A DNA stretch of 56,997 nucleotides from a virus. Its lineage: Duplodnaviria > Caudoviricetes. Where the stretch lies: positions 1 through 56,997 of the IMG/VR virus record IMGVR_UViG_3300044655_000346, one strand, 5' to 3'. Below are positions 6,633-44,300 of the stretch, one piece after another (the stretch's first letter is position 1; every line of letters begins with the position of its first letter). A model generated the notes under the pieces. It had not been told where the DNA came from. It did not search any database and worked only from the letters and a program-made list of their open reading frames with translations. The position numbers and the translations under genes were made by a program.

Positions 6633-7163
6633 ATGTCCGTAATAATCGATGGATCAGCAAGCGTCACAATCAACTCAGGTGTGGTACTGGGGATTACCTC
6701 TGGCACTGCTGTTGCCAGCACATCAGGTACAAGCATTGACTTTACTTCTATCCCATCATGGGTGAAGCGGATTACAGTGATGTTTAGTGGAGTAAGTACA
6801 AGCGGAACATCTATTGTTCAAATTCAACTTGGTTCTGGTTCGGTAACAACAACGGGATATACCGCAAGTGCTTCCTACGGTACAACAGTTGGTCAATTTG
6901 GGGATGCTACAACTGGATTTGTTATTGAACCTTCTGCGTCTGCGACAGCGGGAGCTGTGCGTTATAGCTCTATTATTTTTTCATTGTTGTCTGCCAACAC
7001 TTGGGTTTCACAAGGCAATCTTTACACCACATCAACCAATCCAAATGTAACAAATGTTGGGAAAATTTCTCTGTCAGGCGTTCTTGATCGAGTACGCATT
7101 ACCACAGTAAACGGCACTGACACCTTTGACGCTGGAACAATCAACATTCTTTATGAAGGATAA
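6633..7163 (+). CDS. Tail-fibre module protein (INILYEG family)
   Basis: GTAVASTSGTSIDFTSIPSWVKRITVMF...LDRVRITTVNGTDTFDAGTINILYEG. Confidence 0.65.
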   Translation: MSVIIDGSASVTINSGVVLGITSGTAVASTSGTSIDFTSIPSWVKRITVMFSGVSTSGTSIVQIQLGSGSVTTTGYTASASYGTTVGQFGDATTGFVIEPSASATAGAVRYSSIIFSLLSANTWVSQGNLYTTSTNPNVTNVGKISLSGVLDRVRITTVNGTDTFDAGTINILYEG

Positions 7164-7166
7164 AAA

Positions 7167-7361
7167 ATGACACACAGAACAGTAGTTAACTGCGAAACAG
7201 GCGTAGTCACACAAGTCGAGTACACACCTGAAGAACAAGCCGTGCATGATGCGGCAGTAGCGGCACAAGCTGAAGCGCAAGCACTTGCAGACGTTGAAGC
7301 AGCAGCACAAACATTAGCGGAGCAGGAGTACCCTAGTAATGGACAACCAACAAATATTTAA
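7167..7361 (+). CDS. Small fibre-associated chaperone-like protein
   Basis: MTHR.VVN.ETG....VEY.PEEQA, homolog at 44850-45026. Confidence 0.6.
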   Translation: MTHRTVVNCETGVVTQVEYTPEEQAVHDAAVAAQAEAQALADVEAAAQTLAEQEYPSNGQPTNI

Positions 7362-7563
7362 TGTGGTAGTCGGCATTGCTGGCTTTCTTGCTGTTTATGT
7401 TTTTAACAACACGACAAGACAGATACAAAAACTGGAGGACAAGATAAATGAATTACCTAAAGAATATGTGGCAAAAGATGATTACCGCTCTGACATCGCT
7501 GAAATCAAAGATATTCTCAAACAAATCTTCAACAAGCTAGACGCAAAGGCAGACAAACCTTGA
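7339..7563 (+). CDS. Small membrane protein with coiled coil (holin-like)
   Basis: RBS AGGAG, N-terminal TM segment, LPKEYVAKDDY motif. Confidence 0.6.
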   Translation: MDNQQIFNVVVGIAGFLAVYVFNNTTRQIQKLEDKINELPKEYVAKDDYRSDIAEIKDILKQIFNKLDAKADKP

Positions 7564-7607
7564 ACATGGTGTTACATTCTCATATGTTAAATACACAGGA
7601 GAGTGTT

Positions 7608-8096
7608 ATGCCTATGCCTTTTCAAGATAAAACTGGTTTGCGTTTTGGCAGGTTGGTTGTCAAAGAGTTGATTTCTAAAAAACCTGTTGCAAAGTGGACT
7701 TGTGTTTGTGATTGCGGTAATAAGACTCAGGTTTGGGGTGGTCATTTAAGGAGTGGTGTCACTCGTTCTTGCGGTTGTTTATTGACTGATTCAAACAAAG
7801 AGAAAAAAACAACTCATGGTTTGACTAAAACAAGAACGTACAAATCATGGCGTTCAATGAAGATGAGATGCACATTACCTTCTATGCCTAGCTACAAGAA
7901 TTATGCGGGCAAAGGTATTGGGTTTGATGAATCATGGAATGACTTTAATAAATTCTATGAGGACATGGGTGAACGTCCAGAAGGCATGAGCTTGGACAGG
8001 ATTGACAACAGCAAGAGCTACAACAAAGAAAATTGTCGTTGGGCAGATGCAAAAACTCAAGCAAATAATCGTATTCAAAGGAAATCAAAAGTATGA
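7608..8096 (+). CDS. HNH endonuclease (RFGRL/CxCDCG/SCGC type)
   Basis: RBS GGAG before ATG 7608. RFGRLVV, CVCDCGN, SCGC, SW..MK.RC and SLDRIDN...ENCRWA...QANNR motifs. Confidence 0.85.
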   Translation: MPMPFQDKTGLRFGRLVVKELISKKPVAKWTCVCDCGNKTQVWGGHLRSGVTRSCGCLLTDSNKEKKTTHGLTKTRTYKSWRSMKMRCTLPSMPSYKNYAGKGIGFDESWNDFNKFYEDMGERPEGMSLDRIDNSKSYNKENCRWADAKTQANNRIQRKSKV

Positions 8097-8431
8097 ATAT
8101 GGAAAGTTTGAGCTATGTAAAGTTCGGTGACAAAGACGGACTGGGAGAGTTTTTGTTTGAGAACGGGATGCAACACCAGTTGTTCTACGACATCCTTGGG
8201 GACAATGGTATTGCTGTTCAAAAGTATCCGTTGTCAGAAGCTGACCCTGATAACTTGGATGACTGGCTGTTTGTCCATAACCAAGAGCATCAGAGGCTGG
8301 CTAGTATTTTGGGGTTGGACAATCCTTTCCAATTGTTGGACAGTGATTGGAACGTGGAAGAAGATTTTTATGACTGGCTAGGTGTGCACCAAACCATTCA
8401 TCAACAGATAGCAACAGCTTTAGGAGTGTGA
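8093..8431 (+). CDS. Phage hypothetical protein
   Basis: 112 aa with repeated W...H...H motifs, coupled to neighbours. Confidence 0.7.
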   Translation: MNMESLSYVKFGDKDGLGEFLFENGMQHQLFYDILGDNGIAVQKYPLSEADPDNLDDWLFVHNQEHQRLASILGLDNPFQLLDSDWNVEEDFYDWLGVHQTIHQQIATALGV

Positions 8432-8432
8432 T

Positions 8433-8864
8433 ATGGCAGATGTGATGCAAACAATGAGGAAGCAGACTGTTGCTGAAGATATACCTATGCTTGATATTCT
8501 GAAGAATGAAGCAAAACAAAGAGGTGTTAACTTCAACAATTTGCATGGGATGCTCAAGAGTGACATAAAGAGCGGAAAGACAAGAATCATGCGTTCTGGC
8601 AACACTTTGTTGATATATGACATCATGCAACCTGGCTTTGCTGAAGTGCATATTGCTACTATGGATTCTCCTGACAAACTTGTTGTTGCTGTCAAAGATT
8701 TGTATCAAGCTATGAAAAAGTCAGGTTATAAAACACTTATGGCTATAACTGACAATTCACAGATTGCAAGAGTTTTAAATGCGGCAAAAGTTCCTGTCTC
8801 TGTTCGACAAATACCAAGCAAAGACGGCAAGGCCGAGTATCAATTAACCATACAGGTGCAATGA
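8433..8864 (+). CDS. Phage hypothetical protein
   Basis: 143 aa, RBS AGGAG. Confidence 0.7.
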   Translation: MADVMQTMRKQTVAEDIPMLDILKNEAKQRGVNFNNLHGMLKSDIKSGKTRIMRSGNTLLIYDIMQPGFAEVHIATMDSPDKLVVAVKDLYQAMKKSGYKTLMAITDNSQIARVLNAAKVPVSVRQIPSKDGKAEYQLTIQVQ

Positions 8865-9916
8865 TGGGTAAAAAAATTACGCAAGCAGCTAATTGGGTTA
8901 ACAAAGAAGTTGTTCAACCAGTCGGTAATTTTGTTGGTGAAACAGTAGAGGCTATTGTTAATGACCCCCTACCATTTATTGCAACCGTTGCCCTGACATC
9001 AGTAGGTGTTCCTCCTGCTCTTGCATCTGCTGCCGTTACCGCAGCTAGAGGTGGAAGTATGGAAGATATTGTTGTTGCGGGAGTAGCAACCTATGCTGGA
9101 GGTGAAGTTGGTAAAGCGGCTGGTGCTAGTGCTACAAGTGCGGGAGCATCTGCTACGACTGCAAAAATTGCCGCTTCTGCTGCTGGCGCATCTACCGCTG
9201 TTGTTGTTGCTGGAACTGCTTCTGGTAAATCATTAGAAGAGTCTTTAAAAGACGGGTTGACTGCTGGTGCGTTGGCTGGTGCAACTACTGGCGTAATTGA
9301 ATATGGAAAAGAAGCTCTTACACCTCCTGAAACAGGTCAGGGTATCAAAGCTGTACCAGGCAAAGGCACTGAGCTTTTTGGTGACCAAACCAAAGTCAGT
9401 GGTACTGGATTAACCGAAAAAGTACCTACAGGTGGTGGACAAGGATTGACTGTTGATACTAGTGCCATTCTTCCAACTTCTTTGAAAAAATACGACACGG
9501 ATAAAAGTAGAGTCAGAGGAACAGAGGAGGGTGGTTTACAACCAGCTTACACCTCTGCGGCTGATACGTTAACTCCGCCATCTTTTGATAAGTCACTTGC
9601 ACCTGATGTTGGGTACAAAGAGCCAAGAACAGTCACAGAAGTTCCTGAACCACCTATTTCAAGGACAACAGAACAACTTGCAAGACCAATTGTTTCTGGT
9701 GCGTTGTCAGAGTTGTTTGGGCTTGGCCCTAAAGTTCCAGGCGCACCGTCTGCTGGTGACTCTTCTGTGGTTGCTCAAACTGCCACAACAGGCACTACCG
9801 TAGGCTTGACAGGAGCGGGTGGAGCGGGTGAAATTGAAAGTAAAGAGTCTGGCAAGAAACGTTCAAGCGTGTGGAATGAAGAGTCTTTACGACTCAAAGA
9901 TGCACTAGGAGTGTGA
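8861..9916 (+). CDS. Putative internal virion/ejection protein
   Basis: 351 aa, Ala/Gly-rich hydrophobic N-terminal half, after the tail genes. Confidence 0.6.
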   Translation: MMGKKITQAANWVNKEVVQPVGNFVGETVEAIVNDPLPFIATVALTSVGVPPALASAAVTAARGGSMEDIVVAGVATYAGGEVGKAAGASATSAGASATTAKIAASAAGASTAVVVAGTASGKSLEESLKDGLTAGALAGATTGVIEYGKEALTPPETGQGIKAVPGKGTELFGDQTKVSGTGLTEKVPTGGGQGLTVDTSAILPTSLKKYDTDKSRVRGTEEGGLQPAYTSAADTLTPPSFDKSLAPDVGYKEPRTVTEVPEPPISRTTEQLARPIVSGALSELFGLGPKVPGAPSAGDSSVVAQTATTGTTVGLTGAGGAGEIESKESGKKRSSVWNEESLRLKDALGV

Positions 9917-9917
9917 T

Positions 9918-11057
9918 ATGGCAACATTAAAAAAGATGACCCGTGTAGGTGCAGATGTGCGCCAGATTGCTCGTTTGCTACAAGCAAAAGCACCTGAAAA
10001 CCACATGCTTGCTTACATCACCCCTGAAGAAGCAGAGTTGCTCAAATCCAGAGGTGGTAGCGGTATGCCTGACCCACAGACAGGTATTCCTACCTACTAT
10101 GTTCCTGACCCTGAATATGTTGACCCATATGCTCTTATACATATGCAGTATCCTCAACAAGAAAGTGGATTCGACCCTAGCGCAAGTACAGTTCCTGTGT
10201 CTCAAAGTGATATTGCTTCTTATACTGGTTATACTTTGCGACCCACAAATTCGGGAACAGGCACTGTTGCAAGTGATTCTTTGGGCGGGGAAAGTCAACA
10301 ACAAACTGCATCTTCATATTACACAGGTGGTTCACCTAGTGCGTATGGACAGCCTGGTGCTTTTTCTACTCTTGACCAAGTAAATCAACAAGAAACTGCC
10401 CCTTCATATTACATGGGTGGAACACCTTCAGCATACGCTAGAGCCGAATATCCAGCAGACTTAGGTTTACCACCTGTTGATATTAGAGATGTCGCCGCTC
10501 CACCTATTGACACCACTCCAAGCAAAACTATTGGAGAAAGATATTCTGACCTAGCAAGGAGCTTGGGTGTTAAAGAAGACACCTTGTCTCGTATAGGTTT
10601 GGCTGGTTTGCAAGTTGGTTTAGGTGCTAGACAAGCTAGATTAGCAAGAGAAGAGGCTAGAAAAGCAAAAGAAGAACAACAAAGACTTGCCTCACCATAC
10701 CAAGCAAAAGGTGCAGAATTACAGCGTCAAGCACAGGCTGGAGAGCTTACCCCTGCGGGAAGGCAACAATTGCAGACAGTGCAAGCACAGGCAGCACAAG
10801 CGGCTTCTTCCCGTGGCGGTGTAGGCGCACAGCAAACTGCGGCAAGAGTAGAAGCTATCCGAGGCCAGTTACTGCAACAACAGTATGACTACGGATTGAA
10901 GCTGTCAGGTATTGGTGACCAAATACTCTTGGGTTCTATCAGAACAGGATTGGAAGCTGACAGGTATGTCAATCAGTTATCTAACACTTACTTTACAAAC
11001 GTTGCAAGAACACTTGCAGGTTCACCCACAGTTATCCAATATGGAGTGCCAGCATAA
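9918..11057 (+). CDS. Putative internal virion/ejection protein
   Basis: LAYITPEEAELLKSRGGSG..PQTG motif, Gln-rich helical C-terminus. Confidence 0.65.
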   Translation: MATLKKMTRVGADVRQIARLLQAKAPENHMLAYITPEEAELLKSRGGSGMPDPQTGIPTYYVPDPEYVDPYALIHMQYPQQESGFDPSASTVPVSQSDIASYTGYTLRPTNSGTGTVASDSLGGESQQQTASSYYTGGSPSAYGQPGAFSTLDQVNQQETAPSYYMGGTPSAYARAEYPADLGLPPVDIRDVAAPPIDTTPSKTIGERYSDLARSLGVKEDTLSRIGLAGLQVGLGARQARLAREEARKAKEEQQRLASPYQAKGAELQRQAQAGELTPAGRQQLQTVQAQAAQAASSRGGVGAQQTAARVEAIRGQLLQQQYDYGLKLSGIGDQILLGSIRTGLEADRYVNQLSNTYFTNVARTLAGSPTVIQYGVPA

Positions 11058-12511
11058 TGGTTGATTCTGCACTTAAAGACATAACAAAACTTTCGGTCAT
11101 GCCAGCCTTGCCAAAAACAAGAGCGGTAATGCAACCGAAACCAACACCGTCTGGAATGATTGGTGCGTCTGAACTTGGCCCTGCATTAAGTGAATTAAGT
11201 GAGGCTGAAAGGCAATCATCAATGAGAGTTGGTGAAGCTGACATTGCTATAGAAGAAGCAAAAAGACAGGAAAAAGGACAAGAAGCAGAACTAAGACAAG
11301 AGCTAGTTGGTCGTATGGCAACAGAAGCAAGAAATTTGCCAGAACGTCAAGCATTGACTGCTGCAAGGACTGAGTTTGGCAATATGGCTTTTGTGCCTAC
11401 AAAAGAGACTACGCAAGACTTGGCGGGAATCTTCTCTCTTATGAGCATTGTTGGTATGGTTGTTGGCAAAGGTAATGCACAGCTTGCCATGTCTTCTATG
11501 AATGGCATGTTGGAAGGCTACCAAAAAGGCAGAGCAGACCTTTACAAAAAAGAACTTACACAGTTTGATAAGAACTTCAAAGCCATGCAAAGCAAGGTAC
11601 TGACTCTTGAAAAAGAGCTTTCCGAAGCGATGGAGTTGAAAAAACTTGACAGGGAAAAAGGTGACCTAGGAATTACTATGGCTTTGGCAAAAGGAGAGTC
11701 TCCATTGCTTGGTGCTATGCGTAACAAGTTAGGTGATGTTGCTGTTTTGAATGCCGTTAAGGATACTAAAAACACGTTAAATACTCTTGTTACCCTGAAC
11801 AATGACTTACGAGCAAAAGCTGATGCTAGAGCAGATGCCGCAGAACGTGAAAGACGAGCAGATGAGAGAGCAAGGCTTGCTAGACAACAAGCATTAGATT
11901 TAGCAAATGCAAAAGCCAAAGAAGGTGGTTTCTTAAAACCTGGCGCAAAAGTAACAGAAGGTTATGTTGCAGATGTAATCTTGAAAAATGATTTACAAGG
12001 CTTGGTACAAGATTTAAAAAATCCAAAGCTCATACAGCAGTTGAAACAATACCGAGTTGAAGCCTTCTTGACTGAAGAAGGTAAAGTATTGAATCAGCTT
12101 CTGGCTTCAGAAATACCTCCTGATTTGCTACAGTTTTTGACAAAAGTCAGAGACATTCGTAACAACTACTATCTGAACATATCTGGTAAAGCTGTGACAG
12201 GTGGAGAGGCTTTGCGTAGTTATGGTGCTGTTCCACAGCCAGGTGATGATGCACAGGGTATGCTTAATAAGGTTGGCGGTATGGCTAGTAGGATTGAAAA
12301 CTCTATTAACCTCAAACGTCAGTTGTATGGTTACCCTGAATTAAATTTACAAGGAGGCACAAAAACAAACTTGGCTCCTGGTGAAGACTACACAAGAGAT
12401 GATTCACAAACTCAACGTAGGAGTTTTGCATCTACCGCAGAAGCAGAAGCAGCCAATCTTCCAAAAGGAACAAGAATCACCATTAACGGCAGAAATGCTA
12501 CTGTGGAGTAA
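11057..12511 (+). CDS. Putative internal virion/ejection protein
   Basis: 484 aa coiled-coil-rich, TAATG-coupled. Confidence 0.6.
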   Translation: MVDSALKDITKLSVMPALPKTRAVMQPKPTPSGMIGASELGPALSELSEAERQSSMRVGEADIAIEEAKRQEKGQEAELRQELVGRMATEARNLPERQALTAARTEFGNMAFVPTKETTQDLAGIFSLMSIVGMVVGKGNAQLAMSSMNGMLEGYQKGRADLYKKELTQFDKNFKAMQSKVLTLEKELSEAMELKKLDREKGDLGITMALAKGESPLLGAMRNKLGDVAVLNAVKDTKNTLNTLVTLNNDLRAKADARADAAERERRADERARLARQQALDLANAKAKEGGFLKPGAKVTEGYVADVILKNDLQGLVQDLKNPKLIQQLKQYRVEAFLTEEGKVLNQLLASEIPPDLLQFLTKVRDIRNNYYLNISGKAVTGGEALRSYGAVPQPGDDAQGMLNKVGGMASRIENSINLKRQLYGYPELNLQGGTKTNLAPGEDYTRDDSQTQRRSFASTAEAEAANLPKGTRITINGRNATVE

Positions 12512-12513
12512 TC

Positions 12514-15093
12514 ATGGCAATTAAATTTGAAGATGAGGCTCCCAAAACAACTATTAAATTTGAAGACGATGTTTCTGCCCAGCCTCTTTCTGACAAAAAA
12601 GAACCAGGTCTTTTAGAAAAGGGAACAGAAGTAGGCCGTCAAGGTTTGATAGGTGGTATCACTGGGGCGGTGTTTCCTGAGATAGCAGAAACAACAGGCA
12701 AGGTTATACGTAAGGGTGAGTTTTTGCCTGGCCCTGTTGGAAGAGTGGCTAAATATGTAGGCACAGGTTTAGAGTTGGCTGGTACAGCAATGAAGTCATC
12801 ACGCCCTGCGGCAATGGCAACAGGTGTTGTGGGTGGCGTAACTGGAGAAACTGGCGGTCAGATTTATGAATCTCAGTATGGCCCTGGTCTTGGTGCTGAA
12901 TTAACTCGTTTGGTAACCAGCACAATCGCTCCTGTTCCTGTTCAGTATTTAGGCACAAGAGCAGGTGGATTGGTTTCTGCTTTAGGTACAAAGATGGGCA
13001 TACCTGGCTTTTCTACAGGTAGAACTGTAGGACAGTTGTTGCAAGAGCAAGGTATTGCTGCACCTAATCTTTCAGGAGAACAACGTGCGTTCATCCAAAG
13101 AAAATTAGATGATATTCGTGGTGGTCAAAGCAGCATAGAAGCAGAAAAAGAAATTATTGAGATGCTCAAGAAGGATGTTGCCCGTTTGCGTAGTACAGCA
13201 GCAACAGATGCTAACGCAATAGAGTCGCAAGCCGCAGCACAATCAAAAAGAATATTGGACGATGCAACAAACCGTGCAAATGAAATCAGAGCTAGAGCAA
13301 GGTCAGAAAGCCCTGCTATAAGACAACTTGCAGAGACAGATGCAAAAGATATTCTCAGTAAAGCTCAAGTTCAAGTTCAACAACTTGAAAAACAAACTCG
13401 CACTCAGATTGCAAACTTGAGACAACAGTCGGGTAAGTTGAGCCAAAGAAGTGAGCAAAACATTGGCAAGGCTCAAGCTGAATTACAGACTGTTGGAAAA
13501 GATAAGCCATTAACAGATGTATTTACGCCTGTGCAAGAAACCACCTTGGCAAGACAAAAAGCCATCATTGATGAAAGAGATGTGCTTGATAAGACTCTGC
13601 GTCAAGAACAAGCAAGGATTGTTGCGGCAAATGAAGCTAATGGCGTAAAGCTGTCTGACATGGATTCGTACAAGCAGATAGAGACTCTTACACGACCTTT
13701 TGACCCAGCCACATCACCAACAGTGCGTAAGGTTACAGACCCTGGTGTGCTTGCCTTTTACAAGCGTATTCGTGACTCTGTGATTGACCAACGATATGAG
13801 TTGAATGAAGAGCAAGCAAAGGCAGCATCAAACCTTGGTTTTTCTGTGCAACAAGAGGGAGGCAAGTTTTATAGAGTTTTTAACTCATCTTTTGAAGCGG
13901 CTGATGATGCCCGTAGGTTTGCTGGCACAGTGTTCAAGAACCCGCCTGAAGGCTATGAAGCAGTCAGAGGACAAGTTCAGCAAAATGCTTATGCCTTGCT
14001 GAAGAAGTTGCAAGAGGATTATGTTGGTCAAGTACAGCGCAAAGCCTTGCAAGACAACTGGGCACAAGCTACAAAGCGTTTAGAACTGTTTGAGACAAAG
14101 GCAGGTAAATCCCTGACTGAGATAGAGCAAGGCACAGCAGATGTGTTAAAGCCACCCGCTGAACTGGCAAATGTATTTTTTGGTAACAGGACAGGGGTTG
14201 ACAGGCTAATCACCCAAACAGGAGATGAGCGTTTGGTAAGACAAACTGCTGGTGACTATGTTGCAAGTCAGCTTAGAGGAATGAACGCTCAACAGGCAAG
14301 CTCTTGGTTAAACCAAGCAAAGAATAGAGACTTCTTGTCTCATCCATCTTTGTCTGACTTGCAAGCAAAAGCTCAAGCATATGTTGCCAACCTTGCTAGG
14401 GCTGAAGGATTTGGTGCGGCAAGAGGAAAACTTGCTACAGCTTTGCGTACAGAAGCGCAGGGTTTGCCAGAGATTCTTACAAAACAAACTCCAAAAATTA
14501 CTTCTGAAGCTGAGAAACAAGCGGCAAAAGTCAAACTCAAAGCTCAACAAGATGAAGAAAAGGCATTGAAATTACAAGATAAAGCGGCTTCTGATGTTGA
14601 GTCTGCTGCAAAAAAAGAAGTAAGCGCACTTGCAAAACAGGCTGGAACAGAAGCATCAGCAGTTAGGCAAGCCGCAGAAGATAAAGCAAAAATTATCCTT
14701 GCTGGCACAACAGACTCAAAGCGTGTGCGAGACATTATTCTTGGCAAAAACCGTGCTGAGTTTGAAGAGATGTCCCGTATTGTTTTGGCAGAGACTGGTG
14801 GCAAAGAAAAATTTGCTAAAGCTGTCGGTCAAGTTATTGCTGACAAAGCAGGGAGTAGCTTAAAGGGAGCAATTAACGATTGGAAATACATCAGTGATGA
14901 CTTGGTGTCATATGGCTTGATGACCAAATCTCAGACAGATGCTATCGCCTCAAAGTTGAATGAAATCTATGTAGCCCCTGCTTCATTGGCAGACAAGATG
15001 TCAATCACACAAAGACTGATAAACAATGCAATCTTGGGATATGCAATTCCAAGACCTGTGGGTGCAATCGTTGAAACCGTAACTGGAGAATGA
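12514..15093 (+). CDS. Large internal virion/ejection protein
   Basis: 859 aa, IKFEDE repeats, Gly-rich segment, long helices. Confidence 0.65.
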   Translation: MAIKFEDEAPKTTIKFEDDVSAQPLSDKKEPGLLEKGTEVGRQGLIGGITGAVFPEIAETTGKVIRKGEFLPGPVGRVAKYVGTGLELAGTAMKSSRPAAMATGVVGGVTGETGGQIYESQYGPGLGAELTRLVTSTIAPVPVQYLGTRAGGLVSALGTKMGIPGFSTGRTVGQLLQEQGIAAPNLSGEQRAFIQRKLDDIRGGQSSIEAEKEIIEMLKKDVARLRSTAATDANAIESQAAAQSKRILDDATNRANEIRARARSESPAIRQLAETDAKDILSKAQVQVQQLEKQTRTQIANLRQQSGKLSQRSEQNIGKAQAELQTVGKDKPLTDVFTPVQETTLARQKAIIDERDVLDKTLRQEQARIVAANEANGVKLSDMDSYKQIETLTRPFDPATSPTVRKVTDPGVLAFYKRIRDSVIDQRYELNEEQAKAASNLGFSVQQEGGKFYRVFNSSFEAADDARRFAGTVFKNPPEGYEAVRGQVQQNAYALLKKLQEDYVGQVQRKALQDNWAQATKRLELFETKAGKSLTEIEQGTADVLKPPAELANVFFGNRTGVDRLITQTGDERLVRQTAGDYVASQLRGMNAQQASSWLNQAKNRDFLSHPSLSDLQAKAQAYVANLARAEGFGAARGKLATALRTEAQGLPEILTKQTPKITSEAEKQAAKVKLKAQQDEEKALKLQDKAASDVESAAKKEVSALAKQAGTEASAVRQAAEDKAKIILAGTTDSKRVRDIILGKNRAEFEEMSRIVLAETGGKEKFAKAVGQVIADKAGSSLKGAINDWKYISDDLVSYGLMTKSQTDAIASKLNEIYVAPASLADKMSITQRLINNAILGYAIPRPVGAIVETVTGE

Positions 15094-15094
15094 G

Positions 15095-15235
15095 ATGCCA
15101 CTCAAACAAGGTAGTAGTCAGAAAACCATTTCTGCCAACATTCGCAGAGAAATGAAGGCGGGTAAACCGCAAAAGCAAGCAATTGCTATTGCACTCACAA
15201 CGGCACGAAAAGTCAAAAGAAAGGCAAGAAAATGA
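15095..15235 (+). CDS. Small basic protein (46 aa)
   Basis: Own translation: MPLKQGSSQKTISANIRREMKAGKPQKQAIAIALTTARKVKRKARK. RBS GGAG. Confidence 0.7.
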   Translation: MPLKQGSSQKTISANIRREMKAGKPQKQAIAIALTTARKVKRKARK

Positions 15236-15411
15236 TGAATAAAGAATACGGCAAGCAATCTATGGGTAAGGCCACACAAGCTGATATTGACCGCATGGCT
15301 CGACAAGGTGGTGAGAATGAGGTTCGTGCTTCTGAGGACTACAACCGTCAGATGATGAAGATGCAAGCCAAACCAATGACCCGCACTGCGCCTCGCAAGA
15401 TGAAGCGATGA
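15232..15411 (+). CDS. Small hypothetical protein (59 aa)
   Basis: Own translation, ATGA-coupled at both ends. Confidence 0.55.
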   Translation: MMNKEYGKQSMGKATQADIDRMARQGGENEVRASEDYNRQMMKMQAKPMTRTAPRKMKR

Positions 15412-15620
15412 GTAGGAAGAAGGCTGAAAAGGGTATCAACCCTGCGCTAGAGAAAGCTATCAACGAACTGCTTGCTCAAGTAATGGTTGACCCTACCGCT
15501 ACCCTGACAGACAAAGCAAAAATCATTGACCGTGCCCTGAAGCTAGAGGCTCTGAAAATGAAGGATGCTGATGAAGGGTATGGCGCAGGGTTATTTGGTG
15601 ACGATGACGAGGAGACATGA
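15408..15620 (+). CDS. Hypothetical protein
   Basis: 70 aa, helical with an acidic tail. Confidence 0.6.
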   Translation: MSRKKAEKGINPALEKAINELLAQVMVDPTATLTDKAKIIDRALKLEALKMKDADEGYGAGLFGDDDEET

Positions 15621-15655
15621 TAATATGGTTATTCCGTTATTAGAGAAGGAAAATC

Positions 15656-15877
15656 ATGGAGCCAACCGCAATCATTCGCCTAGCGTTAAAGGTCATCTCA
15701 GACCGCTTAATTACCATTCTTGCTCTGCTCACCTCTTTTGGTCTGGGCTGTTGGGTAATGTGGGAGCCAAAGTGGGAGAGAGTGACAACTCTTGCAATTT
15801 ATGTAATATTCAGCTATCTGCTGGTGAGGATAAAGGAGAAAAAACATGGACATGATTCCGAAGGTCAAGACAACTAA
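15656..15877 (+). CDS. Small two-TM membrane protein
   Basis: Two hydrophobic segments, RBS AAGGA. Confidence 0.6.
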   Translation: MEPTAIIRLALKVISDRLITILALLTSFGLGCWVMWEPKWERVTTLAIYVIFSYLLVRIKEKKHGHDSEGQDN

Positions 15878-16061
15878 GCTACAGGCTCAAGTAGGCACTG
15901 GTATCACACAGAACAAGCTGTGTATGCCTGGTGAATTTACTCCTGGCAAACTTCCCGCAGGTGGCTTCCAAGCTGTGTGGAACTTTAAAAACAACGAGCC
16001 TAACGATTACTTCACTCGTAAACAATCGCCTACCTCTGGTGGCGGTGGAAAGGTCTACTGA
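15846..16061 (+). CDS. Hypothetical protein
   Basis: RBS AAGGAG, 71 aa. Confidence 0.6.
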   Translation: MDMIPKVKTTKLQAQVGTGITQNKLCMPGEFTPGKLPAGGFQAVWNFKNNEPNDYFTRKQSPTSGGGGKVY

Positions 16062-16411
16062 TGGCTAACAATATACCTTTTCAAGTTCAAGGTAAGACAA
16101 CACGTATTAACGTAACTACTGCGGCTAATACGGTTTCTATCCTTGCTGACAGCCCTTGTAATCAACTCAGAATACACAACGGTACAGCCGCAGAAGTGTT
16201 TATCCGTGTGGGCACAGAAAGCACGGATGCTGCTGTCATTCCTGTTGCGGGTACTCCTGCATATGGAACAGTTTTGCACAACAATCAAACAATCATTATT
16301 ACTTCACCCAAGCAAGCTGCAAACACTGCCGCTAATTCTGTTTATGTCTCAGCCATCGCACCCACAGGCACAGCAATCGTGTATGTAACCCCTGGCGAAG
16401 GCATGGCATAG
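16061..16411 (+). CDS. Putative virion protein (beta-rich)
   Basis: 116 aa ending VYVTPGEGMA. Confidence 0.6.
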   Translation: MANNIPFQVQGKTTRINVTTAANTVSILADSPCNQLRIHNGTAAEVFIRVGTESTDAAVIPVAGTPAYGTVLHNNQTIIITSPKQAANTAANSVYVSAIAPTGTAIVYVTPGEGMA

Positions 16412-16420
16412 GGGTTGTAA

Positions 16421-16960
16421 ATTGACCCGTTCACCGCCGCCCTAGCTGCTATTGCTGCAATAAAGCAAGGGGTTGCCCTTTATAAGGACATAAAACAAAC
16501 TGGCGGTGAACTTCACAAGATAACCAAAGAAATCTCTGGTTATATAGGTCAGTTCTTTGAGGCCAATGAAGAGGTCAAAAAGGAGGCGGAAGAGCAAAAG
16601 CGTAACCCTCCTAAATCAAAATCTCTAAAGACGCAAGCACTTGAAAATGTCTTTAACCAGATAGAGTTAGAGCGTCAAGCTGTTGAGTTACGTGAGTTTC
16701 TCATCTATCATGTAGACCCTGCTCTCGGTGCGGTGTGGACAAGATTTGAAGAAGAGTATGCTCGGCTGCGGGAAGAAGAGGAAAGAGAGAGGGGAGAGCA
16801 AGAAGAGAAGGATAGGAGAGCGGCATGGCAACGAAGGCAAATGCTAAACAAACTCCAAGACAAAGCTCTGTTAATCGGAGCAGTCCTCCTAGTTACTATA
16901 TACCTCCACCTCCTCCTATGGTCAATAAGTCTGATGAAGAAGACAACACAAGACTATTGA
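16421..16960 (+). CDS. Lysis-region coiled-coil membrane protein with ATT start
   Basis: Frame open from ATT GAC CCG right after an in-frame TAA. SD-like AGGGG 6 nt upstream. C-terminal TM. Homolog at 45188. Confidence 0.65.
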   Translation: MDPFTAALAAIAAIKQGVALYKDIKQTGGELHKITKEISGYIGQFFEANEEVKKEAEEQKRNPPKSKSLKTQALENVFNQIELERQAVELREFLIYHVDPALGAVWTRFEEEYARLREEEERERGEQEEKDRRAAWQRRQMLNKLQDKALLIGAVLLVTIYLHLLLWSISLMKKTTQDY

Positions 16961-17103
16961 TTGTTTTGGTTTGCCTGATGCTTGTTCTTCCCTTGTTTTT
17001 GTATTTGCTTGCATCTATGTATTTTGATATGCTGTTGCTCAAAGAAGAAATAAAACAACAGCAAGCAATCATCCGCAGGTTATTGATTAAGGATGCCAAA
17101 TGA
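16825..17103 (+). CDS. Small membrane protein (start 16825 or 16918)
   Basis: Single TM plus coiled coil, homolog at 45763-46050. Confidence 0.55.
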   Translation: MATKANAKQTPRQSSVNRSSPPSYYIPPPPPMVNKSDEEDNTRLLIVLVCLMLVLPLFLYLLASMYFDMLLLKEEIKQQQAIIRRLLIKDAK

Positions 17104-20398: not shown

Positions 20399-20413
20399 TT
20401 TTCTCTCCTGTGA

Positions 20414-20725: not shown

Positions 20726-20735
20726 TTCTTTCCTT

Positions 20736-22156: not shown

Positions 22157-22163
22157 GTGAACC

Positions 22164-33651: not shown

Positions 33652-35294
33652 GAATACCTAAAGAACCCGTAGCCAGAGAACAGTTCTATCTTGACTTGAT
33701 AGAAAAATGCCTTGTCAGTCGTGAACAACGCAAGGTTGACTACGCTTCTTTGCGTTCTTACTACCTGTTTGGCAATGCGCCTGATGACGTTCCCGCCATC
33801 TATAACAAAATCTACCCGCACATTGACCAACTGACCTCGTTCCTGTACTCAGCAGAAACCACCAAGTTCTCTATCCACACAGGCGCGTCTGTCCCAGAGC
33901 AAGAACAAATCAAAGTACCAAGCCTGAGTAAGGCTTTGCACGATGAGTGGCTCAACAGCAACGCTGACCAAGTATTCTCAACCGCAGTTACTTGGTCACT
34001 TTGCTACAACACCACCTTTGTCAAGCTCGTCATCAATAACGGCATCCACCCCTACATGGTAGAACCCGCCTGTATAGGCGTGTTGCGTGAAGACAGTGCC
34101 TACACTGACAGACAAGAAGCCATTGTCCAAACCTACTACATCACCAAGTCTGAGTTGTATGACAGACTCTACAGTCATCCCCAAAGAGACTCTATCGTCC
34201 AGCGGGTAATGACTACACAGCATGAGCGTACAGAGATTGCCAACGGCATTCAACGCATCATCTTGTCGCAGTCCAACCCCACCATGTACGGCAACATCAA
34301 CCTTGACTTGACAGGTAACCCGAACTACAAGGCGCAAGTCTCTGAAGAGACTATAGAAATGGTCGAGTTGTGGGTCTGGAATGATGAGACTAAAGACTAT
34401 CAGGTGGTCACAAAGGCTGACCCCAACGTCATCATCTATGACCGTACAGGCGAGTCCATGTTCTTGAAAGGCGAGTTGCCTTTTGTCCAAATCTGCCCCA
34501 ACCCGCTCTACGATTACTACTGGGGGGCGTCCGAGGTACAGCGTCTAATCTACCTCCAGCAGTTACGCAACAAACGCATGACCGAAATCTTGGACATGCT
34601 TGCCAAACAAGTCAGCCCACCTACCGCCCTGATTGGCTTTACAGGTATTCTTGATGAGAAGAGCTTTGCGCTAAACCGTGCGGGTGGCTTACTGGCAACT
34701 GATATGCCAAACGCCAAAGTAGAGAAGTTAGCACCTACTATCCCACCTGATTTATTCCGAGAAATTGGTGAAGTTGACCTGATGTTTGAGGAAGCCTCTG
34801 GCATTGTTTCTGTACTGCAAGGCCGTGGCGAAGCAGGTGTTCGTTCTTCAGGACATGCCTCACAACTTGCTCGACTAGGCTCAAGCCGAGCAAAGAAACG
34901 TGCCCTTGTCATTGAGGACAGCTTGGAGAAGATGGCAACCTTGTATCTCAAGTGTATGCAGGTCTATGACAACACTCACTACACAGACACAAAAGGAATC
35001 AAGTTCATTGCCGAACAGTTCACCAAAGACTTTGTGGTGAAAGTAGATGCTCATTCAAATTCACCCATCTTCATGGAAGATAGCCGCAAGATGGCGTTTG
35101 AGTTGTTCCAGGCTGGCGTGATTGACAAAGAGTCCTTGCTTGACATGATTGAGCCTCCAATGAAACAATTGTTGTTGGATAGGCTCAGAAAAGCAGAGGA
35201 AAAGCAAGCTGCTCAACAAGCTATGGAGCAACAAGCGCAGCAAATGCAACCTCCAAAGGCAGAAGGTAAACCAGACTTGAAAAAGGTGGGATGA
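33648..35294 (+). CDS. Portal protein
   Basis: 548 aa after TerL, P22/T7-like portal features and a Gln-rich tail. Confidence 0.8.
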   Translation: MRIPKEPVAREQFYLDLIEKCLVSREQRKVDYASLRSYYLFGNAPDDVPAIYNKIYPHIDQLTSFLYSAETTKFSIHTGASVPEQEQIKVPSLSKALHDEWLNSNADQVFSTAVTWSLCYNTTFVKLVINNGIHPYMVEPACIGVLREDSAYTDRQEAIVQTYYITKSELYDRLYSHPQRDSIVQRVMTTQHERTEIANGIQRIILSQSNPTMYGNINLDLTGNPNYKAQVSEETIEMVELWVWNDETKDYQVVTKADPNVIIYDRTGESMFLKGELPFVQICPNPLYDYYWGASEVQRLIYLQQLRNKRMTEILDMLAKQVSPPTALIGFTGILDEKSFALNRAGGLLATDMPNAKVEKLAPTIPPDLFREIGEVDLMFEEASGIVSVLQGRGEAGVRSSGHASQLARLGSSRAKKRALVIEDSLEKMATLYLKCMQVYDNTHYTDTKGIKFIAEQFTKDFVVKVDAHSNSPIFMEDSRKMAFELFQAGVIDKESLLDMIEPPMKQLLLDRLRKAEEKQAAQQAMEQQAQQMQPPKAEGKPDLKKVG

Positions 35295-36975: not shown

Positions 36976-37977
36976 ATGGCTATTGGCGGCGGCATCCTAC
37001 CAGCAACAGGGTCAGCACAGTTCAACGAACTGACTTACGTTACTCGTAGAGCCTTCATCCCCAAGCTGGTTGTCCAGCTTTATAACTCGACACCCCTCAT
37101 GGCGGCTCTGATTGCCAACAGTCAGTCAGCCTCTGGTGGCGTGTCTTCCGTAACCGTTCCCGTCCAAGGCGCACAGTTTGTGAACGCTCAATGGTCTGAC
37201 TACAGTGGCTCTTTTGCCCAACCGTCAGTCCAGCAAGGTGCTTACAACGCTGAGTTCGACCTGAAACTGATGATTTCTCCTGTACCGTTCCTCGGTATGG
37301 AAGGCGCAGTTCAGCAAGATGCTGCCATTATTCCGTTGATTGAAGCTCGTATGAACGATGCAACCAACGTGATGATGGATGCAATGGCAACCGCTTTGTA
37401 CACCAACACCACCAATACACAACAGTTCATCGGTTTACCCGCTGCTGTTGCGAACTCAGGTACTTACGGCAACATTGACCGTAGCACCTACACTTGGTGG
37501 AAGTCTTCACAGTATGCCGCTGGCTCTGTGAACCCAACCCGTCAAAACATTCTGCAATACATTTCTGGCACAGTGAAAGCTGGTGCTGAAATGCCTAGCT
37601 TTGGTGTTTGCGGTTTTGGCACTTGGACACTGTTGGCTCAAGACTTTGTAGGTCAAGAGCAATACGTTATCACCCCAGGCGCAGGTTTTGATGGCGAAAC
37701 CAATGGCCCTCAAGCTGCTTTCCGTGCCTTGATGGTTGCTGGCGTACCTATCTATCCAGACCCTTACTGCCCTGAAGGTACTGTGTACTTCCTGAACACC
37801 AACTACTTGTCTCTGTACATCCATGAGCAAGGTTCGTTTGTGTTTACAGGCTTTGAGTCCACACTTCCTAACTGGCAAATTGGTTATGTTGGCGCAGTTT
37901 TGATGATTGCCGAATTGGTGAACGTCAAACCTAAGTCAATGACCAAGGTGACGGGTTACAACTACCTTTCACTGTAA
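36976..37977 (+). CDS. Major capsid protein (phage B)
   Basis: 333 aa, strong RBS AGGAGG, biased codons, GVPIYPDPYCP.GT.YFLNT. No visible similarity to the phage A capsid. Confidence 0.8.
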   Translation: MAIGGGILPATGSAQFNELTYVTRRAFIPKLVVQLYNSTPLMAALIANSQSASGGVSSVTVPVQGAQFVNAQWSDYSGSFAQPSVQQGAYNAEFDLKLMISPVPFLGMEGAVQQDAAIIPLIEARMNDATNVMMDAMATALYTNTTNTQQFIGLPAAVANSGTYGNIDRSTYTWWKSSQYAAGSVNPTRQNILQYISGTVKAGAEMPSFGVCGFGTWTLLAQDFVGQEQYVITPGAGFDGETNGPQAAFRALMVAGVPIYPDPYCPEGTVYFLNTNYLSLYIHEQGSFVFTGFESTLPNWQIGYVGAVLMIAELVNVKPKSMTKVTGYNYLSL

Positions 37978-39925: not shown

Positions 39926-41923
39926 ATGGCAGCAGCAGAACAAAAGAAATCTTATGCTGTCTATAAGAATTTCAAAGGCCTGAATACCAAGGCCAATAGA
40001 ACAGCTATTGATGAGGAAGAGTTTTCGTGGATAGAAAATGCCATGCCTATCGGGTTTGGCAACATCAAGATTGTTCCAGCCCAAGTAACTGTTAAAGATG
40101 GTGGTAATAACGCTATCTCGTTTGGAAACACGGTAACAACGCTTGTCAATACAAATTTAGAGTTGTCTGACTATTTGTTGGCTTTCCAAGAAGATGGTAG
40201 AGGACAGTACGTCATCATAGACACAGGTACTGTAGGCAATGTTGGCGTGACAGGTACATTCTCTTCTGCAAATATATCTATCGCACAGTGGAAGAATGAA
40301 GAGGTATATATAGGTGACCCCAACAAAGGACTCTTTTCTTGGGATGGCACGAACCTACTTAATGTTGGTGGTGTAGGTCAGATAGGGATTACAAACAGGG
40401 GGTCAGGATATATTTCTGCGCCAGCAGTTACCATCTCTGCCCCTAACCAGGCAAATGGCACACAGGCCACAGCAGAGGCAACAATCACTGCAAATGCCGT
40501 GTCATCCATCGCTATTACTGAAGGCGGTAGCGGGTATACCGCTGCACCTACCGTAACAATTACAGGCGGTGGCGGGAGCGGTGCTACTGCTATTGCTGAA
40601 ATCCTTACCTTTACAAAAGGTGCGTTGTTTGTTCAAGTTACAAACGGTGGTTCTGGTTATAACCCTGCATCTCCTCCCGCTGTAACCATCTCTGGTGGTG
40701 GTGGAGCAAATGCCGCTGCTACTGCTATCGTATTTGGCAATGCAGTAACACAAGTCATCATGTCAAATGTGGGCAACAACTTCACAAGTGTGCCTACAGT
40801 CACGATAGCTGCTCCTCCTACTCCTACGGGAAATGCAAATGCCACTGTAATAGGTGTGCCTAACCTAGAAGAGATAGCAAGTGTTTCTACCTTTTCTGGT
40901 CGGGTATGGGTTGCTACAGGTCGTACAGTTACCTTTTCCTCTGCAACTAGTCCTACTGATTTCACTTCTCTTTCTGCGGGGTCAGAGACAATTACAGACT
41001 CTACCTTGCGTGGCAACATACAAAACATGGTGTCTGCCAACAACTTTCTGTACATTTTTGGTGAAGACAGCATCAACGTGTTCTCAGATGTGCGGATTAC
41101 AAACACAGGGGATACCCTATTTACGAACACAAACGTGTCTGCGTCTGTAGGCAGTAAGCTCAAGTACGCTGTTTACCCTTACTTCCGTTCTGTGCTGTTT
41201 ATGAATAACTACGGGGTGTATGCCCTAGTTGGCTCAACAACAAGCAAGATTTCTGACCAACTAGATGGCATCTTTCCCTATATTGACTTTACCAAACCTG
41301 TGACTGCTGGTCAGGTCTTGCTAAACAACATTCTCTGCGCTGCATTTAACTTCTACCTGAATTCCAGTTTTCCTACCACCACGGGAGACAGGTTTGTACA
41401 GTGCGTGTTTTTTGAGAAGAAATGGTTTGTGACAAGCCAGGGTGCGTTGCGGTATGTGTCATCTGCCCCTGTAGGTGGCTTGATTAACTTGTATGGGGTA
41501 ACAGAGACTGCTCTTTTCAAGCTGTACGGGGATGCAACTGCAAATATCTCTTCTGAGATACAGACATCTTTGTCTCCTATGAAAGACCCTATTAGAACCA
41601 AACAAGCCTTGAAGTTTGGTATTGAAGCAACATTGTCTAATTCTGCCACCTTTACTGTTACTGTTGATAGTGAGTACGGAAGTAGCCCCCCTTACACTTT
41701 AACCAACGGTGCGGTTAATTGGATTAACAACAGTTCAGTTGTTATTCCTTGGACAAACAGTTTTAGCGCAATTATTCCTTGGCTGTCTTCTGGTGGATAC
41801 AACTTGTATAAATCAGATGCACAGCAATACGGCAAATATCTGGGTTTGACCATGACATCAACAGACCCCGCTTTTGTCGTAAACACATTTGAGTTTGAAC
41901 ATGAATTGAGAGTGAGGTTTTAA
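39926..41923 (+). CDS. Tail nozzle / tubular protein B-like with inserted GSGY repeats
   Basis: FKGLNT N-terminus, beta-propeller-like body, repeated GSGY..APTVTI.GGGG units. Confidence 0.65.
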
Positions 41924-42868
41924 ATGGCAGTTCCGTATACCTTTCAATCGGCAACGGGTTCTATTCCGCTGTCTCAGCTTGATAGCAACTTCGCTACCGC
42001 TATTACTATTGGTAATACGGCTGTTGTCCTTGGTGACTCTATAAGCACCATCAACAATTTAAGTCTTGCCAACGTCAGCATATCTAGTGTTTCTACTGCT
42101 TTTCCAAATGGATACTTGGCAAACAGCAATGTAATTGTGGGAACAACCACACTGACACTTGGCAGCACTGTTAGCACTATAGATGGCTTAACTTTAAGTA
42201 ATGTCACTATTTCAAGTGGAAATGTGACTATCACAAACGTGTCTGTTACTACAGCAAATGTTACTACTGCTAACGTAGGTACGTTAATAGTTAGCCAAAA
42301 TGCAACTGTTAATGGAAACGTGTCTGTTATTGGTAATGTCAGCATGAACGTGGCTACCATCACAACTGCAAATGTGAGTGGCACTGCAAATATATCCACA
42401 CTTGTAGTAACTGGGAATGCAAGTTTTACAAGCACAGGAGCTGTGTTGTTGGCAAAAGGTACAACTGCACAACAACCCACAGGTGTGGCTGGTTCGTTAA
42501 GGTTTAACACTGACACAAATACATTTGAGGGCTACAACGGCACTGCATGGTCTGCTGTAGGCGGAGGGTCAACATTATCAAACGACACGACTACAGCAAC
42601 AAACTTGTATCCAATATTTGCAGCCGCAACCACTGGAACACCAACAACCGTATACACAGGTAACGCTAAACTACTTTATAAACCAAGCACAGGCGAATTT
42701 ACATCTTCTGTGCTGACGGCAGGTAACGGCATTGTGGTAAACAGTCAGTCAGTGGCAACAAGCTATACGATTGCGGTGGGGTACTCAGCAATGTCATCAG
42801 GGCCAATCACAATTGCCTCTGGTCAAACGGTCACAGTATCTAGCGGTTGTCGCTGGGTTGTTCTGTAA
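41924..42868 (+). CDS. Tail fibre protein (phage B)
   Basis: LSQLDSNF anchor, NVT/NVS repeats, GTTAQQP...LRFNT..FEGYNG and RWVVL end. Confidence 0.7.
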   Translation: MAVPYTFQSATGSIPLSQLDSNFATAITIGNTAVVLGDSISTINNLSLANVSISSVSTAFPNGYLANSNVIVGTTTLTLGSTVSTIDGLTLSNVTISSGNVTITNVSVTTANVTTANVGTLIVSQNATVNGNVSVIGNVSMNVATITTANVSGTANISTLVVTGNASFTSTGAVLLAKGTTAQQPTGVAGSLRFNTDTNTFEGYNGTAWSAVGGGSTLSNDTTTATNLYPIFAAATTGTPTTVYTGNAKLLYKPSTGEFTSSVLTAGNGIVVNSQSVATSYTIAVGYSAMSSGPITIASGQTVTVSSGCRWVVL

Positions 42869-42877
42869 AGGAAAAAT

Positions 42878-43462
42878 ATGTCCTCAGTAATTATTTCAGG
42901 AGACACCAGCGGGGCTATCACAGTATCAGCCCCTGCTGTTGCTGGTACAAATACGCTGACGCTTCCAGCATTAACTGGAACTATTCTTACCGATAAGACC
43001 GTGGGAACTGTGTTGCAAGTTGTTAGCGTCGCCAAAACCAATGTTTTTACCACGACAAGCACAACTCTTGTTGATATTACTGGGTTAAGCGTAAGCATAA
43101 CTCCAACTTCTGCAACAAGTAAAATTTTAGTGCTGTGCAGCTTATCTCTAAATGTGACCAATGGAAATTACATGGCTCAAGCAGTATTGTTTAGTGGGGC
43201 AACAAGAATCTCTGTTGGCGATGCGGCTGGTAGTAGAACTCGGTCTTCTGCTTATGCAACAATTAATGGAGATAGAGGCCGTAGTCCATTTTCAATTACT
43301 TTTTTAGACTCTCCAGCAACCACATCATCTACAACCTATAAATTTCAAGGTTTAGTAGAATCTGGTGGGACACTTTATATAAACCAAAACGCAAGTGATG
43401 CAGATAACGCAAATAATGGCCGCAACGCATCGACAATAACACTTATGGAGATAGCGGCATGA
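42878..43462 (+). CDS. Tail-fibre distal module protein (copy 2)
   Basis: Near-identical to 5189-5773. Confidence 0.7.
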   Translation: MSSVIISGDTSGAITVSAPAVAGTNTLTLPALTGTILTDKTVGTVLQVVSVAKTNVFTTTSTTLVDITGLSVSITPTSATSKILVLCSLSLNVTNGNYMAQAVLFSGATRISVGDAAGSRTRSSAYATINGDRGRSPFSITFLDSPATTSSTTYKFQGLVESGGTLYINQNASDADNANNGRNASTITLMEIAA

Positions 43463-43616
43463 ATCACGATGCAATATATGCTCTTTACCCGCAAGTTGTC
43501 TCTGTTGATGATGGCACAGGTGCTTTTGATGCACAAGGGAACAAAGTTGAAATTGACTTAGATGCAGTCAATGCTTGGATTGACCCAAACGCATACAAAG
43601 CCAAACGAGCATCAGA
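43007..43616 (+). repeat. ~610-bp direct repeat, right copy
   Basis: Identical to 5318-5927. Confidence 0.95.
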
Positions 43617-43719
43617 ATACCCACCATTTGCAGACCAATTTGACTTGTTGTTTCATGGCGGCATGGACGCATGGAAAGCCGCAATTCAGGCAGTCAAAGA
43701 CAAATATCCAAAGGCTTAA
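43459..43719 (+). CDS. Tail-fibre chaperone-like protein (copy 2)
   Basis: 4 aa differences from 5770-6030. Confidence 0.65.
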   Translation: MNHDAIYALYPQVVSVDDGTGAFDAQGNKVEIDLDAVNAWIDPNAYKAKRASEYPPFADQFDLLFHGGMDAWKAAIQAVKDKYPKA

Positions 43720-43721
43720 TC

Positions 43722-44300
43722 ATGTCAATACTTGCTTTAACTTCTGACACGCTGATTGGTACAGCTGCCGCTGGCAACATTGAATACAACGGTCAATTCT
43801 TTGGGACTGACAGCAATGCGTCACGGGCGCAGTTGCAGAGGATTGTGAGAGGTACTGCTGTTGCATCTACTAGCGGAACATCAATTGATTTCACTGGCAT
43901 CCCTGCGTGGGTTGAACGCATCACTGTAATGTTTAGTGGTGTCAGTGGAAGTGCAACAAGTAATTTTTTGCTTCAAATAGGCGATGCTGGCGGTATTGAA
44001 AACACAGGATATTCTGGTGGTAGTTTTAACGCTGGCGCAACAGCTAATAGCACAGCAGGTTTTGATTTAACTGCTCAAAATGCCGCCGCCCAAGTATGGG
44101 GAGGCTCAATAACGCTGACAAATTTAAGCGGAAATATTTGGTGTCAGTCTGGCGTTATTAGTGGCACAAGCGCTGGCTACATTGGTGCAAGTGGCGGTGC
44201 AAAAGAACTTTCCGCAACTCTTGACCGAGTCCGCATCACCACCGTAAATGGAACGGATACTTTCGATGCCGGAAGCGTAAATATCATATATGAAGGATAA
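43722..44300 (+). CDS. Tail-fibre module protein (NIIYEG family)
   Basis: Counterpart of 6033-6629, with the ATG at the same repeat offset. Confidence 0.65.
   Translation: MSILALTSDTLIGTAAAGNIEYNGQFFGTDSNASRAQLQRIVRGTAVASTSGTSIDFTGIPAWVERITVMFSGVSGSATSNFLLQIGDAGGIENTGYSGGSFNAGATANSTAGFDLTAQNAAAQVWGGSITLTNLSGNIWCQSGVISGTSAGYIGASGGAKELSATLDRVRITTVNGTDTFDAGSVNIIYEG

Follow-up and report, generated by a model that had tools for sequence, protein, structure and literature searches.

Why are GATC and CCGG missing from some 37 kb in the middle of a viral contig that holds both words towards its two ends? The question is raised by IMGVR_UViG_3300044655_000346, a linear IMG/VR virus contig (Caudoviricetes) with a listed CheckV completeness of 100, which was analysed as a whole and whose 56,997 nucleotides (nt) are referred to here as the window. 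An initial annotation had reported the two gaps and had taken them as a sign of two genomes that differ in their anti-restriction strategies or in their hosts. In what follows, phage B denotes the inner genome of ~37.7 kb, and phage A the podovirus sequence that flanks it at both ends of the window. The explanation that we favour, and that we hold to be fairly probable as a whole, is that B has been purged of restriction targets, that A methylates its own, that the two phages share a host, and that the contig joining them is an assembly chimera.

Every site of each word was listed across the window, and expectations were calculated both from composition and from a maximal-order Markov model. 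GATC has 85 sites, of which 24 lie up to 7086 and the other 61 from 44339 onward; the 21 CCGG sites are divided into 11 up to 4196 and 10 from 44269. Neither word has a site in between. Both gaps are thus as first described, the previously noted position 7090 being the base after the last GATC at 7086. CGCG, which had been called rare, is indeed so: it occurs 59 times, 18 up to 6347 and 40 from 45505, and the only site between them is at 33884. For the 37,178 nt of 7091-44268, composition predicts 142.5 copies of GATC and 98.7 each of CCGG and CGCG, and the Markov model predicts 86.9, 57.9 and 46.1, respectively; the observed counts are 0, 0 and 1. The three words are the lowest of the 256 four-mers in this interval, and for the next-lowest, TCGA (28 copies), the Markov model expects 35.9, which accounts for its low count. 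GATC in the flanks agrees with expectation (85 versus 94 by the Markov model), and CCGG is moderately low there (21 versus 39).

Observed and expected counts of 4- to 6-mers, which had been proposed as a check, do differ between the inside and the outside of the interval, and they add a further void. When all 4- to 6-mers were scanned over the B backbone (7339-42077, as delimited below), strong deficits were restricted to short palindromes, and GGWCC, the lowest 5-mer class, had 0 copies versus 25.5 by the Markov model and 50.7 by composition; its only sites in the window are those at 288 and 1753 and those from 46128 onward. ACGT, for its part, is void in the flanks: before 7291 it is found only at 6442 and 6499, and after 42348 not at all. 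Codons were also shuffled synonymously 300 times among 43 B-backbone genes (28,974 coding nt) and, separately, among 19 A genes. The B shuffles gave 72.9±6.6 GATC, 53.0±6.3 CCGG and 41.0±5.6 CGCG, and counts as low as those observed appeared in 0 of 300, so that neither the encoded proteins nor their codon usage accounts for the voids. For the A genes, the shuffles gave 42.9±5.0 ACGT versus 0 observed. Two other deficits in the B backbone, AAGCTT (0 versus 10-22 expected, a weaker signal) and GGCC (about half of expectation, 49 versus 93-106), may reflect further, weaker avoidance.

That two genomes are present is borne out by evidence independent of word counts. The window contains two unrelated capsid genes, one matching SU10_MCP and truncated at base 1, the other a PHROG 9953 major head protein at 36976-37977. 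B is collinear, gene by gene, with two circular records from GenBank, one of 35.6 kb and one of 34.2 kb (73-75% amino acid (aa) identity for TerL and 89-91% for the capsid protein), while A is collinear with a different circular record of 36.5 kb and is 87-97% identical in nucleotide sequence to a complete 37,176-nt IMG/VR genome, G004. It follows from the unrelated capsid genes and the separate synteny that these are two genomes. B is a complete phage genome of ~37.7 kb, and A, which begins within its capsid gene, amounts to a ~19-kb piece of a P22-like podovirus; complete genomes of the A family measure 37.1-38.3 kb. The relatives came from protein searches, since megablast of the A and B parts against GenBank phages returned nothing. 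The contig ends have no terminal overlap, and circularity is therefore unusable as evidence. No match to the tyrosine or serine recombinase and integrase models PF00589 and PF00239 was found in six frames of the window, and B is apparently a non-temperate, widespread freshwater phage. Both families are very common in lake metagenomes, with at least 599 matched stretches each in IMG/VR; the numbers of family loci given below are counts among the matches listed.

The voids extend well beyond this one record. In a tree of the major capsid protein (MCP) gene with 83 rows of uncultured relatives of B, 20 of the 21 rows in B's clade lack GATC, CCGG, CGCG and GGWCC alike, and the void sets of the sister clades are nested subsets. 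The GGWCC void is the most widespread in the tree and the GATC void is found in most of a 63-row clade; voids of CGCG and CCGG are confined to sub-clades, and another clade lacks GATC, ACGT and GGCC. Because the voids are common to relatives, they are a lineage trait and not a chance feature of one genome. The single exception in B's clade, L029, is nested among four-void rows; GATC and GGWCC remain void in it, but CCGG and CGCG together have 24 sites over 6 kb of backbone. Either avoidance was lost or this backbone was replaced by recombination. Total voids of other composition occur in GenBank relatives, with MW202753.1 lacking GATC (0 versus 97), ACGT (0 versus 61) and GGCC (0 versus 80), and MW202879.1 lacking ACGT (0 versus 81). 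Another B-family GenBank relative, MW202825.1 (flagged UNVERIFIED_CONTAM), has adenine methylase fragments and no GATC void, and its GTAC is strongly depleted (14 versus 114). Among A-family loci of at least 93% aa identity, 33 of 34 have 0-3 ACGT where 9-31 are expected, and GATC is near expectation; more distant members often retain ACGT, and some lack CCGG. Within each family, then, void sets shift between close relatives.

We consider restriction-modification pressure to be the best reading of the cause of the voids. Six-frame searches of the window revealed no D12, C5 or N6/N4 DNA methyltransferase, and the methyltransferase-like content of B consists only of a small generic S-adenosylmethionine (SAM) methyltransferase at 18537-19001; a DUF5672 protein is also encoded. 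The search of A for a methyltransferase that the initial annotation had recommended thus failed within the window, but it succeeded among complete relatives. A C5 methyltransferase (PF00145), whose gene lies outside the part of A that the window holds, is present in all three complete A-family records and in three of the five searched; it was not found in MW202879.1 or in a 76%-complete A-family record. In the closest of these genomes the enzyme has 509 aa, and the two halves that match the model are set apart by a long stretch. Within the B family, one of five records has a C5 enzyme, and a correlation between methyltransferases and voids was rejected for lack of a clear pattern.

These data can be accommodated by the following mechanism. 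The hosts of B would carry Type II restriction enzymes that cut GATC, CCGG, CGCG and GGWCC, and B would encode no DNA methyltransferase to protect those words. Its lineage would have lost every backbone copy of the four palindromes through synonymous and tolerated changes, so that B would evade restriction by having no targets. A, by comparison, would evade it through cytosine methylation, using the C5 enzyme of its complete relatives, and would have purged only ACGT, the one word that its methylation does not cover. Fibre and lysis cassettes are exchanged between A and B, and sites re-enter with imported DNA. Enzyme types that fit the words, we presume, are MboI/Sau3AI, HpaII/MspI, FnuDII/BstUI, AvaII and MaeII.

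The exchange of cassettes is most evident where A meets B. Homologous tail-fibre cassettes, with the gene order g0C-g1-g2-g3-g4-g6, are located at 4225-7307 (copy X1) and 42518-44993 (copy X2). They share an exact 610-nt repeat, 5318-5927 being 100% identical to 43007-43616 at an offset of 37,689, and this repeat is present at both joints. Further exact runs of 67, 46, 44, 43 and 34 nt are shared, all of them within 5227-6728, a plus-strand zone inside copy X1 that holds all exact repeats of at least 31 nt in common with copy X2 and in which A passes into B (g1 5189-5773, g2 5770-6030, g3 6033-6629 and the start of g4). Public sequencing runs X1-X4, of which run X1 is from lake water, were compared by way of k=31 contigs, which break at repeats. 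Run X1 holds 96% of the window's sampled words. The public-run contigs break at 5256/5591, 6085/6101 and 6710, and one of 10,709 nt covers 6710-17418 with 0 differences, running straight through 7090. All eight B-family loci that reach past ~42050 match the window to ~42024-42404 and then again from 7339 or 8093, and the 1.4-4.4 kb of fibre DNA in between cannot be aligned. This places the B backbone at 7339-42077, with the cassette completing the circle.

The true joint between A and B lies in 5227-6728. The positions 7090 and 44268, which had been taken as the boundaries, are merely the outermost unpurged sites and were rejected as joints: by eye, no shared exact sequence longer than 13 nt occurs there, the contig just described runs through 7090, and B-family homology resumes only at 7339. 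A crossover anywhere in 5227-6130 would give 19,308 nt of A without any ACGT and a clean B backbone of 34,739 nt, with 4 GATC and 1 CGCG in B's 2,950-nt cassette. A single clean crossover was nevertheless rejected as a full account of the marker words, because at least 5 sites fall on the wrong side wherever the crossover is placed. In addition, a B-family contig (L056) has a length of exactly 37,689 nt, equal to the repeat offset, but it is only 67-78% identical to B, and we regard the match as a coincidence. A GIY-YIG gene (4456-5202) stands between g0 and g1 in copy X1 only, and the identical 610-nt tract begins 116 nt downstream of its end; the endonuclease-free junction of the copy X2 form was found in runs X1-X3.

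B retains few target words, and these are located in recently imported fibre genes. Across its 19 closest relatives, 21 sites fall in 45,862 nt of variable DNA versus 12 in 177,905 nt of backbone, a density 6.8 times higher in the former. This suggests that leftover sites are a cost of host-range switching, in that imported receptor-binding genes bring restriction targets with them. A literature search brought up no paper dealing specifically with these word sets or with clustered sites in fibre genes, and there is weak evidence that such a cost had not been described previously.

The traffic in genes also bears on the hosts. Shared fibre and lysis cassettes point to co-infection of the same cells, and to judge from these sequences A and B very probably meet in the same host cells. 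Their g1 and g2 fibre proteins differ at only a few residues. The B holin (17100-17612) has 68% aa identity to that of the A relative MW202879.1 but only 52% to that of B's own relative MW202753.1, and the B lysis region (16411-18164) is 72-74% identical in nucleotide sequence to A-family loci L150, L174 and L195. Homologues of an A gene at 986-1450 occur in B-family loci L014 and L037 (42-47% identical), with a shorter match in L079, and in L014 the homologue fills an alignment gap just upstream of the capsid gene; their presence points to gene flow between the families. A and B co-occur in all four runs compared.

It is possible, although unlikely, that the difference between A and B comes from separate hosts whose restriction enzymes differ, and not from two strategies followed within one host. 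There is no overlap between the void sets, A lacking ACGT and B lacking GATC, CCGG, CGCG and GGWCC, and the changes of these sets between close relatives would fit enzyme differences among host strains. The 610 identical nt, the near-identical g1 and g2, the common lysis genes, the A gene with B-family homologues and the co-occurrence in every run argue instead for a common host. Of the two options offered by the initial annotation, different strategies are thus favoured, on the strength of the C5 enzyme in relatives of A, and different hosts are weakened by the shared cassettes. As to which hosts these are, a search of bacterial genomes with fibre protein g1 found no relative, and a search with a TerL alignment found three phage-sized contigs binned in metagenome-assembled genomes (MAGs); the label is 'uncultured beta proteobacterium' for two of them and Balneolaceae for the third. 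These B-family genomes (L090 and L092, MAG contigs of 36,786 and 37,605 nt, and L091) were binned whole into MAGs of different taxa and are probably binning passengers; L091 has voids of its own, CCGG (0 versus 20) and ACGT (0 versus 21). In 65-80 kb of other DNA per MAG, GATC, CCGG and CGCG are near expectation, and the GC content of the MAGs differs (0.42-0.50).

A second alternative concerns the nature of the pressure. The words might have been purged to escape methylation-dependent nucleases (Type IV or DpnI-like) instead of classical restriction enzymes: orphan methylases of one host would mark GATC, CCGG, CGCG and GGWCC, and the next host would cut the marked phage DNA. The void words of B are common methylase targets, B has no methyltransferase of its own, and this scenario and classical restriction cannot be separated from sequence alone. 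We nevertheless consider it improbable, because the C5 methyltransferase of the A family would be harmful if Type IV nucleases against 5-methylcytosine were the main threat.

Returning to classical restriction and to the record itself, the nesting of B inside A most likely arose during assembly, as a chimera formed at the shared fibre cassette, and the 610-nt repeat at 5318-5927 is most likely the point of mis-joining. A is truncated at both contig ends, whereas B is complete. Seven A-family contigs (L005, L132, L133, L139, L140, L147 and G004) connect the left part of A to the right part within 1.7-4.2 kb, and together with eight B-family contigs, all from other samples, they have the partner-free arrangement at this locus. 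It is these partner-free contigs, combined with the exact repeat, that make a chimera the most likely origin of the composite. A backbone genes were seen in B-family loci in 0 of 89 cases, and B backbone DNA from outside the lysis region was seen in A-family loci in 0 of 80. The two phages also vary separately between samples. In run X4, depth is 21-1263 for A-like sequence up to 7337 and then 0.4-13 for B, at about 2 in most bins; in run X2, A is a diverged variant at a depth of 8-11 and B is exact at ~4.

Alternatively, the composite could be real, if a circular B and A recombined by one homologous crossover in the shared fibre cassette of a co-infected cell and the cointegrate was sequenced. 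The layout fits such a crossover, with the cassette copies as direct repeats around B at the 37,689-nt offset; B encodes RecE-like and RecT recombination proteins; and in run X1 the depths of A and B are similar and the contig's k-mers are present at a share of 0.96. Yet a cointegrate of ~75 kb should fit neither capsid, judging from the 37.1-38.3 kb of A-family genomes and the ~37.7 kb of B, and it is seen in 0 of 7 A-family and 0 of 8 B-family bridging contigs. Abundance and sequence variant are independent for A and B in runs X2 and X4, and the marker words misfit one clean crossover. We judge a sequenced cointegrate to have a low probability, and slightly less probable still is the stronger proposal that the contig represents a real A::B cointegrate of two abundant lake phages with opposite anti-restriction strategies, persisting at about the parental level in that sample. 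Site-specific insertion of B into A is not supported, the six frames of the window having no PF00589 or PF00239 match. Weakest of all is the idea that the voids arise secondarily from mutation bias, CpG depletion or codon usage, or else are a sequencing or assembly artefact: words containing CG are generally scarce in B (TCGA has 28 copies versus 142 by composition), but the idea is refuted by a Markov model that absorbs CpG depletion and still expects 58 CCGG and 46 CGCG, by a GATC void in a word without CpG, by synonymous shuffles that never come near zero, and by the same voids in 20 contigs assembled independently from other samples.

Several observations weigh against the combined explanation of a purged B, a methylating A, a shared host and an assembly chimera. 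In run X1 the depths of the two phages are alike (8.5-14.8 for A and 12.7-14.8 for B), which is exactly what a real single molecule predicts. Among the k=31 contigs, as distinct from reads, no molecule was seen that contradicts the joins of the window, and no crossover splits the marker words perfectly. The binomial P of 9e-8 for clustering in variable DNA treats related loci as independent, and the MAG contigs carrying B-family phages gave no host signal. MW202879.1, a relative of A, has the ACGT void and no C5 methyltransferase. Finally, two B-family genomes (G011 and G012) keep GATC, CCGG and CGCG and yet have no recognised methyltransferase, so that the presence or absence of a methyltransferase alone does not predict the voids.

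The remaining features of the window can be described from left to right. The left part of A (1-5226, plus strand) contains GATC, CCGG and CGCG but no ACGT, and is 87-97% identical to G004. Its first gene (3-626, plus strand), which is cut by the contig end, retains 207 C-terminal aa of a major capsid protein of SU10 type, with 62% aa identity to the capsid protein of MW202879.1; the part continues with virion and tail genes, the fibre gene g0 (3937-4440) and the GIY-YIG homing endonuclease gene, all on the plus strand. Beyond the passage zone, the end of B's own fibre cassette (6729-7338, plus strand) holds the rest of g4 to 7163, g6 (7167-7361) and the unpurged GATC at 7086. The B backbone has genes on both strands and contains no GATC, CCGG or GGWCC and only the CGCG at 33884. 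Tail genes and genes of no assigned function (7339-17612, plus strand) are followed by the divergent early genes (17443-28444, minus strand), which include RecT (20900-21760), the RecE-like gene (22164-23057) and a clamp-like gene (26810-27445) whose product has a match (E 2.4e-6) to PF02767, the central domain of the beta sliding clamp of DNA polymerase III. The head genes, on the plus strand, include TerL (30234-31988), portal (33648-35294), the capsid gene already mentioned and an Ig-like protein (39926-41923). A cysteine-rich open reading frame (ORF) of 176 aa at 7566-8096, without a Pfam match, is absent from at least 6 close B-family contigs, which jump from ~7557-7573 to 8092-8114, and it looks like a mobile insertion.

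To the right of the backbone, the left part of B's fibre cassette (42078-43006, plus strand) comprises g0 (41924-42868) and the start of g1 (42878-43462); the four B words are absent from it, and it has no ACGT after 42348. The second copy of the 610-nt repeat, also on the plus strand, is followed by the right part of copy X2, which is assigned to A (43617-45022, plus strand; g3 43671-44300, g4 44304-44846, g6 44850-45026) and has CCGG at 44269, GATC at 44339 and 44575, and no ACGT. G004 is continuous with the window over 44757-46041, at 92.6% identity. The right part of A (45023-56997, plus strand) lacks ACGT and contains lysis genes, a 'stabilization' protein of 493 aa (47986-49467), large virion proteins (51058-56381) and the first part of the early region.

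An implication of this analysis is that a record listed as a complete virus most likely joins two phages and is unfit to serve as one genome in taxonomy, host prediction or size statistics. The two families also offer a natural comparison, because the B family purges its sites stepwise in nested sets, the A family has a C5 methyltransferase and purges ACGT only, and the two still trade cassettes. We suggest that void sets could record the restriction enzymes of an uncultured host population.

Finally, we note that the pattern in B (short palindromes, total loss, synonymous sites, clade-specific change and re-entry with imported DNA) is a clean example of a known phenomenon. Total site loss has classical instances in a large staphylococcal phage that lacks GATC and in Bacillus phages that lack GGCC. 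These likewise have zero copies of a 4-bp palindrome, but they are cultured phages with known host enzymes that cut the missing word, whereas B is uncultured. Self-methylating phages with C5 methyltransferases are also familiar, and they include the multispecific enzymes of Bacillus phages. The complete A-family genomes similarly carry a PF00145 enzyme, for which multispecificity is suggested by length only. Chimeric contigs of two genomes are known from metagenome assemblies as well; here, too, two unrelated genomes would have been joined where an exact repeat (610 nt) exceeds the reach of short reads, one of them complete and the other cut at the contig ends. In the abstract of a survey of phage site avoidance, the phenomenon is described in about one in ten viral genomes, is more pronounced in non-temperate phages and mostly concerns orthodox Type II systems (Rusinov et al. 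2018, BMC Genomics 19:885, PMC6286503). Compared with that abstract, B is alike in having no integrase, voids of short palindromes only and complete or near-complete loss, and it differs in that four words are void in one 35-kb backbone known only as sequence, with nested, clade-specific sets across 83 relatives.

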